From Pseudoxanthomonas sp. (GTDB lineage Bacteria > Pseudomonadota > Gammaproteobacteria > Xanthomonadales > Xanthomonadaceae), in assembly GCF_035999195.1 (NCBI RefSeq), contig NZ_DASYGY010000004.1, positions 58,827-122,826 on the forward strand: a stretch of DNA of 64,000 nucleotides. Reading direction: 5' to 3'. Below are positions 54,091 to 55,158 of this stretch, piece after piece. The notes beneath the pieces are model-generated. The model had not been told where the DNA came from. It ran no database searches and saw only the letters and a program-made list of their open reading frames with translations. The first letter of the stretch is position 1. Every line of letters begins with the position of its first letter. The translations under genes were made by a program, and so were the position numbers.

Positions 54091-54457
54091 GGCGTTGTTC
54101 TCCTTGTTGGCTCTGGTGGTTCGATCCGGATCCAACGGATCGCCGCGGTGGATCGAGTCCCGCGACGAACGGTGCCCATCGCGATGCGCGATCGGCGGAA
54201 GAAGGTGGAAACGCCCCTGGACGAGGGCGGTGCGGGCGACCGGCGCTGTCGGCGGACGCATCGCAGCGAGGGCGCAGTCCATGGACTGCGTCGAACGCTG
54301 CGCGCGTCCGCGTCGAGGGCGCGGTGCCGGCACCATCCCCGCTGCGATGCATCGTCTTCCTGCATTCCTTCGCGGAAAGGCGTTGCGCCGCACGGGGCGT
54401 TTCCTGGGGGGACTTTCGTCCCGGTGTCATGACGTGACAGGTCATGTGCCCTTGCAG

Positions 54458-54531
54458 GCGTTGGAGCGGGAATCGAACCCGCGACAGTCGGATTAACCGT
54501 CCGATGCTCTAACCATCTGAGCTATCCAGTG
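54458..54531 (-). tRNA. Aberrant tRNA-like element, Asn-type GTT anticodon (G33, broken acceptor stem, no encoded CCA)
   Basis: TA-GCTC-AGATGGTTA-GAGC-A-TCGGA-CGGTTAA-TCCGA-CTGTC-GCGGG-TTCGATT-CCCGC; acceptor pairs 5 of 7. Confidence 0.7.
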
Positions 54532-54601
54532 GTGGACGAACCGGATTCGAACCGGTGGCCAACGGCATGCGCCGCTGCTCTCCCACGCTGAGCTATCGTC
54601 C
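54530..54601 (-). tRNA. Aberrant tRNA-like element with 4-nt anticodon loop (GCAT), 6-bp acceptor stem and encoded CCA
   Basis: GGACGA-TA-GCTC-AGCGTGGGA-GAGC-A-GCGGC-GCAT-GCCGT-TGGCC-ACCGG-TTCGAAT-CCGGT-TCGTCC-ACCA. Confidence 0.7.
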
Positions 54602-54944
54602 GCTCGAGGAACACCGTCTCCCACGCTTCGGCATACGCCACGGCAGCGCCGCGCGCACCGGACGGGATACAAACCCGTGCCGCTGTCGCGTGTTCGATCG
54701 ATGCTCCGCATTGCCGGCGGTCGCCCACCGGCAATCCGTTCGGGCGCCATGCGCCCTTGTCGGCGTTCTCTCCACGTGCAGCCCGCATCGGGGCATCACG
54801 ACGCAGCGCACATGCGCCAGTCGCAGCCGCGCCCCTGCATCGGGGCGCGCACGCGCGCTACCCGGATGCCCCAGGGCGGAAAAGGATTTCCGTGGTGGAA
54901 AGAGACGAACCTGTTCGATGCATGCGCATCCTCCGCGAACGCTG

Positions 54945-55018
54945 AAAACAAAACGCCCCCGGGACTTGCGACCCGAGGGCGTTCGCGTTCCTCGGGAGAT
55001 CGGGGTGGCCGATCTCCC
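54945..55018 (-). terminator. Attenuator: protector hairpin / antiterminator / intrinsic terminator
   Basis: GGGAGATCGG-ccacc-CCGATCTCCC (55018-54994); CCCGAGG..CCTCGGG (54996-54972); AACGCCCTCGGG-tcgcaagt-CCCGGGGGCGTT-ttgtttt (54983-54945). Confidence 0.75.
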
Positions 55019-55035
55019 AGGGAGTCAGCCGGATG

Positions 55036-55158
55036 TCAGAAGTCCAGGTGCCGTGCGCGTTCGGTACCGCGCAGGTCGCTGCCGTTCGCACGCAGCGCCA
55101 GGCCGCAGCGTGATGGCTGCAGGGCGGGCTTGCTGTCGAAGGAATAGGCGGGCTTCAT
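55036..55158 (-). CDS. Putative 40-aa leader peptide MKPAYSFDSKPALQPSRCGLALRANGSDLRGTERARHLDF
   Basis: ATG about 43 nt after the predicted TSS; stop 17 nt before the attenuator; no Shine-Dalgarno. Confidence 0.5.
   Translation of the reverse strand: MKPAYSFDSKPALQPSRCGLALRANGSDLRGTERARHLDF

Follow-up and report, generated by a model that had tools for sequence, protein, structure and literature searches.

Certain bacteria encode the RNA ligase RtcB adjoining a Band-7 protein and a predicted non-coding RNA (ncRNA; bioRxiv 10.1101/312249, 2018, on YrlA). As quoted in that preprint, this ncRNA, called b7a-tRNA (for band-7-associated tRNA), is a computational prediction by Burroughs and Aravind (Nucleic Acids Res 2016), and our literature search found no work on b7a-tRNA later than the preprint. 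The ncRNA YrlA, which occurs with Ro60 (Rsr) in rsr-yrlBA-rtcBA operons (RF02553), has been proposed as a cofactor for RNA repair (bioRxiv 10.1101/312249), and in Pseudomonas aeruginosa the SPFH protein PaFlo8 lies within an rtc locus together with RtcA, RtcB and RtcR (PMC13086221, 2026). Here we describe a locus of this kind in a 64,000-nt stretch of a Pseudoxanthomonas genome (hereafter, the window), where two tRNA-like elements precede co-oriented genes for a Band-7/SPFH protein and RtcB. The upstream element is called element 1; element 2, which overlaps its 3' end and is our main subject, is real, strongly conserved and selected, and is predicted to be a tRNA-shaped ncRNA.

Element 2 shares with b7a-tRNA a strong resemblance to tRNA, an adjoining Band-7/SPFH gene and an RtcB gene next to it; no difference in kind was found, as far as the quoted description of the class extends. 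On sequence and gene order, it is the Pseudoxanthomonas copy of this predicted class. The likeness to YrlA with Ro60 lies in a tRNA-mimicking ncRNA, an operon with RtcB and a neighbouring ring- or cage-type protein; in addition, the promoter of the Pseudomonas element described below appears to be RtcR/sigma-54 dependent, like that of rtcBA. Unlike YrlA, the operon in the window has no Ro-binding stem and no TROVE/Ro gene (none was found among the open reading frames (ORFs) scanned), its protein partner belongs to the SPFH group, and it carries two complete linear cloverleaves where YrlA has one permuted tRNA-like domain. The Rfam YrlA model gave a weak match at 54498..54564 (minus strand) that starts in element 1's T arm, crosses the junction and reaches the D arm of element 2, and membership in that family was rejected at 29 bits against a gathering score of 69. 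This match runs in the permuted order of the YrlA tRNA-like domain and is probably merely shared T- and D-arm sequence. A looser analogy, and no more than an analogy, is provided by vaults, in which a small structured RNA accompanies a cage-forming protein with an SPFH-type fold: the major vault protein (MVP) has an SPFH-like shoulder domain, and a TROVE protein related to Ro, TEP1, is a vault component. Vault RNAs, however, are not tRNA-like, and MVP is absent from the Foldseek matches listed for the Band-7 protein.

Read on the minus strand, element 2 is CACTGGA-TA-GCTC AGATGGTTA GAGC-A-TCGGA CGGTTAA TCCGA-CTGTC-GCGGG TTCGATT CCCGC-TCCAACG-C. It matches the Rfam tRNA model (RF00005; gathering score 29) at 49.4 bits (E = 1.5e-7 for the whole window), and element 1 does so at 45.3 bits (E = 2e-6). 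With these scores and E-values, and as the sole RNA-family matches in the Rfam scan of the 64 kb, the two elements are far beyond chance. ARAGORN reports them as tRNA-Asn(gtt) at 54457..54531 and as an anticodon-less tRNA-??? (2-nt anticodon) at 54531..54602. Like canonical tRNA-Asn(GUU), element 2 folds into a cloverleaf: the D-loop carries the standard GG and the T-loop has the form TTCGANT, the anticodon stem has 5 bp and its loop 7 nt, and the variable region is 5 nt long. Element 2 differs from a canonical tRNA in its 4-bp acceptor, in the absence of an encoded CCA and of a conserved discriminator, in G33 and in an anticodon that is not conserved; moreover, its place is within an mRNA leader, where its first bases coincide with the 3' end of its neighbour.

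An original prediction, made from the letters of the window, had described a perfect 5-bp anticodon stem closing the loop CGGTTAA with G33, an acceptor with 5 of 7 pairs and no CCA, and a start on the last CA of the upstream element. The sequence bears out each of these statements, although the prediction did not identify the element as a member of the b7a-tRNA class. The anticodon stem pairs 54504..54500 with 54492..54488 without a mismatch, and the loop occupies 54499..54493, with G33 at 54498 and GTT at 54497..54495. In a 7-nt register, the acceptor pairs are C1-G72, T4-A69, G5-C68, G6-C67 and A7-T66, leaving A2/C71 and C3/A70 unpaired, and the bases that follow the 3' end are CCTG. The ACCA of element 1 lies at 54533..54530, so its C75 and A76 (54531 and 54530) are also the first two bases of element 2.

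More than 250 loci, from Gamma-, Beta- and Alphaproteobacteria and from a small number of other phyla, have element 2 upstream of a Band-7/SPFH gene of the same orientation, at a distance of 200-680 nt and usually with RtcB next, and the tandem of both elements occupies the same place in 78 of 80 Lysobacterales Band-7 loci (protein identity 74-95%). A DNA-only scan with the exact 46-base element 2 pattern TGGATAGCTCAG..AGAGCA..GCGGGTTCGANTCCCGCTCCA, run on one genome per GTDB species, returned at least 120 loci. Nearly all of those with enough flank lie 250-600 nt upstream of a co-oriented Band-7 homologue (38-95% identity), and matches at Band-7 genes of merely 38-52% identity come from Beta- and Alphaproteobacteria, Binatia and Thermoanaerobaculia. 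One pattern match (L100) is a genuine tRNA-Thr with a full acceptor. Starting from the protein instead, a profile-based search gave 80 further diverse Band-7 loci, 77 of which have an element 2-like RNA 200-680 nt upstream; a search for distant loci with a single distant protein (P0203) as the query had returned no matches. The plasmid search yielded nothing beyond 60-nt tRNA-like matches, which are uninformative.

Covariation was examined in 146 non-identical, diverse element 2 sequences. Standard pairs fill 88.6% of the cells, compared with 71.1% after shuffling of the columns and 32-44% after sliding of the 3' partners, and changes on both sides of a pair were counted in 536 cells against 140 in shuffles, a number reached by none of 500 shuffles. 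All four helices covary, including all five pairs of the anticodon stem and three of the five pairs of the T stem, and the sequence of the T and D arms is conserved above that of the proteins, across classes. The original prediction had taken the two elements for a deliberate pair and named, as the outcome that would speak for neutral pseudogenes, random decay across relatives without compensatory pairing. Since that pattern is clearly not what the double changes show, we take element 2 to be a functional RNA, and the view of a deliberate, conserved pair is supported.

The short 4-bp acceptor of element 2 is a conserved trait of the family. Its four inner pairs (TGGA/TCCA) are kept in 72-79 of the 79 Lysobacterales loci and covary across the 146 diverse loci, appearing elsewhere as AAGC/GCTT, TTTG/CAAA, TCGA/TCGA or AAAG/CTTT. 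The three outer positions, by contrast, are unpaired in 57-71 of the 79 Lysobacterales loci, as they are in roughly two thirds of the diverse sequences, so the C1-G72 pair of the window is fortuitous. By our reading by eye, some Gammaproteobacteria that lack a recognisable element 1 have six acceptor pairs. No clade among the 146 loci has a CCA after element 2. The earlier suggestion that the RNA may effectively start at 54529 or 54528, with a shorter acceptor, fits this conserved TGGA/TCCA stem.

The anticodon loop, on the other hand, keeps its form and is free in its identity. It has 7 nt in 118 of the 146 sequences, and these 118 prefer C at position 32 (84), U at 33 (86, with G in 10), U at 36 (76), A at 37 (100) and A at 38 (95), giving Y32, U33, U36, A37 and A38 as the preferences across relatives. 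Positions 34 and 35 are near maximum entropy. Thirty-seven different triplets occur in these loops, the commonest being CAT (22), GTT (16) and GAT (11), and strains as close as 93-95% in Band-7 protein identity can already differ in the triplet. In about ten lineages a tetraloop (GCAA, GAAA or TTCG) takes the place of the 7-nt loop. With this many triplets and U33 as the family norm, "Asn-type" and "G33" do not hold as properties of the element, as had been claimed; the Asn triplet and G33 are features of this strain and its nearest relatives alone. With a 4-bp acceptor stub, no encoded CCA and an unconstrained anticodon, element 2 is not a decoding tRNA. In three S. maltophilia strains (L236, L247 and L248), the element 2 loops differ solely at the middle anticodon base (CCT, CGT and CTT).

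We compared rates of change in 13 Pseudoxanthomonas genomes by pairwise difference and parsimony steps per site. At 4-fold degenerate sites of the Band-7 gene the mean pairwise difference is 0.145 (0.93 steps per site), and in element 2 outside the loop it is 0.054 (0.42 steps per site). The 7-nt loop reaches 0.456 (3.71 steps per site), faster than the 4-fold sites (P = 3e-5), and the anticodon triplet within it 0.594.

Element 1 is built in a complementary way. Its acceptor has 6 bp (GGACGA/TCGTCC), its other arms are a D arm, a hairpin of 5 bp and a T arm, and its 3' end is ACCA; the hairpin is closed by a 4-nt loop, GCAT in the window and GCAA, GAAA or GCGA in relatives; acceptor, hairpin and T stem covary. 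An NCCA plus one base directly precedes the TGGA core of element 2 in 53 of 79 Lysobacterales loci, and a CCA lies no more than 5 nt from the core in 71 of the 146 diverse loci. At most of the distant loci a unit of T arm and NCCA is again found 5' of element 2, and in Betaproteobacteria, read by eye, element 1 is without a D arm but still has its acceptor, T arm and ACCA as well as a GNRA hairpin. The observation that the two elements are defective in complementary halves thus describes a layout conserved in Lysobacterales: element 1 with a tetraloop, a 6-bp acceptor and NCCA, and element 2 with a 7-nt anticodon-type loop, a 4-bp acceptor and no CCA.

Strains with near-identical flanks, element 2 and Band-7 gene carry element 1 in no fewer than two strongly divergent versions (GGACGATAGCTCAG... 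and GACGATGGCCGAAT...). The divergent versions were seen at 54534..54601 (minus strand) of the window and at loci L004, L008, L009, L024, L028, L034 and L051; the close relatives L004, L008 and L009 carry a quite different element 1 between near-identical flanks. Contigs from RNA libraries show the same replacement of 67 nt by 66 nt. On sequence comparison this looks like cassette exchange by recombination. A joint in the RNA contigs from 54535 to 54603 was considered as excision of element 1 and rejected, because the apparent skip is the divergent 66-nt element 1 of related strains.

Table 1. Positions of the tRNA-like elements, other leader modules and operon genes in the window.
Feature	Position	Strand	Evidence
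5' hairpin GGC-ACGGG-TTTGTAT-CCCGT-CCG	54659..54681	minus	RNAalifold: 8 pairs, 3 with compensatory changes
Near-invariant 33-nt block CCGGTGCGCGCGGCGCTGCCGTGGCGTATGCCG	54629..54661	minus	at least 90% identity per column
Element 1 (tRNA-like)	54530..54601	minus	ARAGORN, Rfam tRNA, covariation
Element 2 (tRNA-shaped RNA)	54531..54458	minus	ARAGORN, Rfam tRNA, conservation, covariation
Element 2 conserved core, TGGA to TCCA (4-bp acceptor, D, anticodon and T arms)	54462..54528	minus	pairing kept, covariation
Element 2 anticodon-type stem-loop TCGGA-CGGTTAA-TCCGA	54488..54504	minus	all 5 stem pairs with two-sided changes
Element 2 T arm GCGGG-TTCGATT-CCCGC	54466..54482	minus	stem invariant in 79/79 Lysobacterales loci
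Second GNRA-tetraloop hairpin GCCT-GCAA-GGGC	54448..54459	minus	
Free-standing anticodon-stem-loop mimic CATGAC-CTGTCAC-GTCATG	54428..54446	minus	all 5 tested pairs covary
GNRA-tetraloop hairpin GGGAC-GAAA-GTCCC	54409..54422	minus	stem varies, pairing kept
Hairpin, then pyrimidine-rich tract, CGCCCTCGTCCAGGGGCG TTTCCACCTTCTTCC	54196..54233	minus	partly conserved
Band-7/SPFH (slipin-type) gene, 372 aa	52972..54090	minus	Pfam Band_7 E = 1.3e-29
RtcB RNA ligase gene, 448 aa	51549..52895	minus	Pfam RtcB E = 8.5e-125

The two elements are surrounded by further structured modules (Table 1), and the region 54690..54196 folds with a minimum free energy z-score of -5.2. In the RNAalifold analysis, pairs with compensatory changes occur in the 5' hairpin, in each of the two cloverleaves and in the free-standing anticodon-stem-loop (ASL) mimic. 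This last hairpin begins 15 bases after element 2. At 149 of 224 unique loci, compared with 5.8 +/- 2.5 in shuffles, element 2 is followed by a hairpin whose stem has 4 bp or more and whose 7-nt loop fits the anticodon-loop pattern Y-U-NNN-R-N; its loops are CUGUCAC (33), CUUUCAC (19), CUGUAAA (11), CUGAAAA (9) and others. We take these four to be the anticodon loops of the tRNAs for Asp, Glu, Tyr and Phe, respectively, and the element 2 loops CUGUUAA, CUCAUAA and CUGAUAA presumably correspond to those for Asn, Met and Ile. In some lineages the stems, too, are presumably those of tRNA-Tyr or tRNA-Asp anticodon arms, for example CAGA-CUGUAAA-UCUG, which we take to be that of E. coli tRNA-Tyr. 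Complementarity between the element 2 triplet and the triplet of the downstream hairpin, as expected of loop-loop kissing, was found at 1 of 76 loci, the chance level.

The ASL hairpin is kept in Pseudomonas and some Betaproteobacteria despite a tetraloop in element 2. In three Acidovorax loci (L241, L250 and L251), one of Burkholderia (L270) and L255, the anticodon loop of element 2 and every loop of the downstream hairpins is a stable tetraloop (GAAA, GCAA or TTCG); such lineages are natural loop-less variants, usable as controls for a bait hypothesis.

The best-conserved stretch of the whole intergenic region, above either tRNA-like element, is the 33-nt block at the 5' side. It can fold as an 11-bp hairpin with G-U pairs, and as these pairs never vary, constraint on structure and constraint on sequence are indistinguishable here. 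Related motifs (GTATGCCG and CATGCCGC) occur in Beta- and other Gammaproteobacteria, and a hairpin similar to the 5' hairpin is likewise present in other Gammaproteobacteria. The stem of the GNRA hairpin that follows the ASL mimic reads GGGAC/GTCCC, GGAAC/GTTCC or CGGGC/GCCCG in relatives (alignment A5), and the Betaproteobacterial counterpart is GGTC-GAAA-GACC. The hairpin with the pyrimidine-rich tract, which the terminator scan did not call, may tentatively be an attenuator or the 3' end of a leader RNA.

The placement of these modules is clearest in Pseudomonas sp. 21 (L249). There, a divergent RtcR gene (RtcR and sigma-54 activator domains) and a well-spaced sigma-54 promoter (TGGCACGCCCCTCGCT, L249:1938-1953), about 120 nt upstream of the tandem pair, are followed by the CATGCCGC motif, element 1, element 2, the ASL hairpin, Band-7 and RtcB, in this order. 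Because the promoter lies upstream of the whole array, the tRNA-like elements belong to the 5' leader of the operon, and the Pseudomonas pair is predicted to be transcribed under RtcR control. For the same reason the CATGCCGC/GTATGCCG motif, being downstream of the sigma-54 promoter and so within the transcript, was rejected as a promoter; TGGCAC-like strings of other Gammaproteobacteria were rejected as well, since by our own count their spacing is wrong. Neither an rtcR gene nor a canonical sigma-54 promoter like those of L249 was found at the window locus.

In transcript assemblies the leader is covered more deeply than its genes. In a sediment metatranscriptome the leader contig (54226..54686) has a depth of 70.7, against about 10 for the gene contig, and in a Stenotrophomonas-like transcriptome the depths are 329 for the leader and 105 for the genes, with one contig that spans elements 1 and 2 unbroken. 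Leader depth is thus 3-7 times that of the coding region in RNA-derived assemblies, which suggests a stable leader RNA with partial termination near the 54233..54196 hairpin. Element 2 is one module of a longer, structured leader of perhaps about 480 nt (roughly 54686..54205), a length that is provisional, as are the transcript ends, since contigs carry no strand or end information.

The explanation that we favour, at somewhat better than even probability, is that the conserved tRNA body serves as a Y-RNA-like RNA cofactor for the SPFH cage and/or RtcB, and that the loops are accessory. As with YrlA and Ro60 in rsr-yrlA-rtcBA operons, the invariant D/T elbow and T arm, which together with the short acceptor we take to be what every lineage retains, would be bound by an oligomeric SPFH cage and/or by RtcB, and the RNA would either recruit the ligase to tRNA-shaped substrates or keep it in a ribonucleoprotein (RNP). 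The element 2 loop and the downstream hairpin would then be exchangeable modules that keep the Y32-U33...R37 form while their identity changes quickly, and such anticodon-type loops might present surrogate substrates, or bait, for anticodon-loop damage that RtcB could reseal. A cut by RNase P at the 5' side of element 2 would free the NCCA end of element 1.

Several points weigh against this explanation. According to the 2018 preprint, the existence of b7a-tRNA lacked experimental validation (bioRxiv 10.1101/312249). The cofactor role, with the predicted binding to Band-7 or RtcB and the predicted processing, is proposed by analogy, and the invariance of the T stem could have a cause other than protein binding. 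No promoter was recognised in the window, with no match of the sigma-70 type and no sigma-54 match above 7/12, and the assembled contigs that make up the RNA data may contain DNA. Fast change, finally, is not unique to the loop, as the free positions 16/17, 20, 44, 45 and 59/60 took 3-5 steps in the same comparison. Diversifying selection on the anticodon was considered and given up as unproven: with these other positions nearly as fast, it is inseparable from relaxed constraint combined with a high local rate of substitution or recombination.

The loops could instead be the point of the system. It is possible, though on the unlikely side, that the primary function of the leader is that of a bait or sensor for anticodon nucleases: ribotoxins would cut the element 2 loop and/or the ASL hairpin, the cut leader would titrate the toxin or induce Band-7/RtcB, RtcB would reset the leader by resealing it, and each strain's anticodon would follow the toxins that the strain encounters. 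The bait idea had been raised in the original prediction, as an anticodon-nuclease bait paired with a CCA-end mimic. RtcB seals breaks with 2',3'-cyclic-phosphate and 5'-OH ends, exactly the type concerned here. The canonical Y-U-NNN-R-N form is kept in two separate modules, whose loops, and in some lineages the stems too, presumably match those of real tRNA anticodon arms; the free-standing ASL mimic adds some support, as do the very fast turnover of the loop between close strains and the S. maltophilia loops that differ at position 35 alone. Yet the all-tetraloop lineages (Acidovorax, Burkholderia and L255) keep the tRNA body and the operon, so a cleavable anticodon loop is not a universal core function, the other unconstrained positions evolve almost as fast, and the PADLOC models gave no match for Band-7 or RtcB and no defence-island signal. 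A fuller version, in which the leader is a modular, fast-diversifying ribotoxin sensor with two loop mimics cut by incoming anticodon nucleases and reset by RtcB, we regard as unlikely. In this version the mimics, which in different strains seem to imitate the anticodon loops of the tRNAs for Asn, Met, Ile, Asp, Glu, Tyr and Phe, would be broken in or beside the SPFH cage, and the break would report the attack, by derepressing Band-7/RtcB from its own leader, and would also soak up toxin. If the sensor reading were true, the turnover of anticodons from strain to strain would record an arms race with tRNA-targeting toxins.

Neither a cofactor nor a bait would be needed if the leader acted purely in cis, through processing or stability signals (entry of RNase P, Z or E, or a protective 5' structure) or as an attenuator with no role in trans. 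The fixed, co-oriented upstream position with a spacer of constant length fits this well, as do the array inside the sigma-54 transcript in Pseudomonas, the terminator-like hairpin before the Band-7 ribosome-binding site and the excess of leader depth over gene depth. It seems quite improbable all the same, because conservation of the T and D arms above the proteins and across classes is needless for a mere processing signal, and the many modules of the leader, together with its likeness to Y RNA, suggest an RNP. Moreover, the 2016 analysis, as quoted in bioRxiv 10.1101/312249, notes that b7a-tRNA and YrlA occasionally swap partner proteins, which argues for a trans-acting RNA. It is exceedingly improbable that element 2 is a true tRNA-Asn of an unusual kind, or else a tRNA pseudogene in decay or what is left of an integration site. 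The ARAGORN label and an Rfam tRNA score above the gathering threshold would be expected of a tRNA-Asn, but the orthologous position carries 37 triplets, and the acceptor has 4 bp with mismatches at 2:71 and 3:70 and neither CCA nor a conserved discriminator. Neutral decay is excluded by strong purifying selection and compensatory changes, and neither an integrase nor a repeat context was seen at the locus.

The question addressed by this locus is what the natural substrates of bacterial RtcB are, and why the ligase travels with ring- or cage-forming proteins and tRNA-like RNAs. Together with its more than 250 relatives, the locus offers a testable anatomy, with an invariant elbow and T arm, a shortened acceptor, an NCCA partner and two strain-variable anticodon-type loops. 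If the loops are toxin targets, the system would be a self-reporting sensor of RNA damage; if only the body matters, it would be a second independent case, beside YrlA, of tRNA mimicry as a ligase cofactor. What we add to the class is that the short acceptor is a trait, that the anticodon is free and changes fast, that the partner ends in NCCA, that a free-standing ASL mimic and an invariant 5' block belong to the leader, and that the array is placed in a sigma-54/RtcR transcript; the full description of Burroughs and Aravind (2016), of which the quoted part is considered here, may already contain some of these features. The locus will be no surprise to specialists in RNA repair, but it provides a clearly delimited setting in which to study the targets of bacterial RtcB. 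Annotation labels such as tRNA-Asn, Tyr, Leu or "tRNA-???" are wrong for these elements, and pipelines will keep producing them.

In the window, the end of element 2 lies 368 nt upstream of the Band-7 gene, which the RtcB gene directly follows, and RtcB is present at most related loci with enough flank. The other neighbours are genes for an FtsX-type permease and, upstream on the other strand, an RsmC-like methyltransferase. The nearest relatives of the Band-7 protein are from Pseudoxanthomonas. Its AlphaFold2 model (pLDDT 66, moderate) combines an SPFH domain with three beta units at the N terminus and a long helix at the C terminus; a membrane helix at the N terminus is not predicted. Foldseek matches it best to proteins that build cages or rings, namely stomatin, HflK/C, prohibitin, flotillin and erlin; the model thus suggests a soluble-looking, cage-type partner. 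The RtcB Pfam domain starts at residue 76 of the 448-aa ORF, which could reflect an N-terminal extension or a start called too early. Between the RsmC-like gene and the leader, the interval 54951..55158 (minus strand) contains a 40-codon ORF (MKPAYSFDSKPALQPSRCGLALRANGSDLRGTERARHLDF) and, after it, a strong intrinsic terminator (54984..54951).

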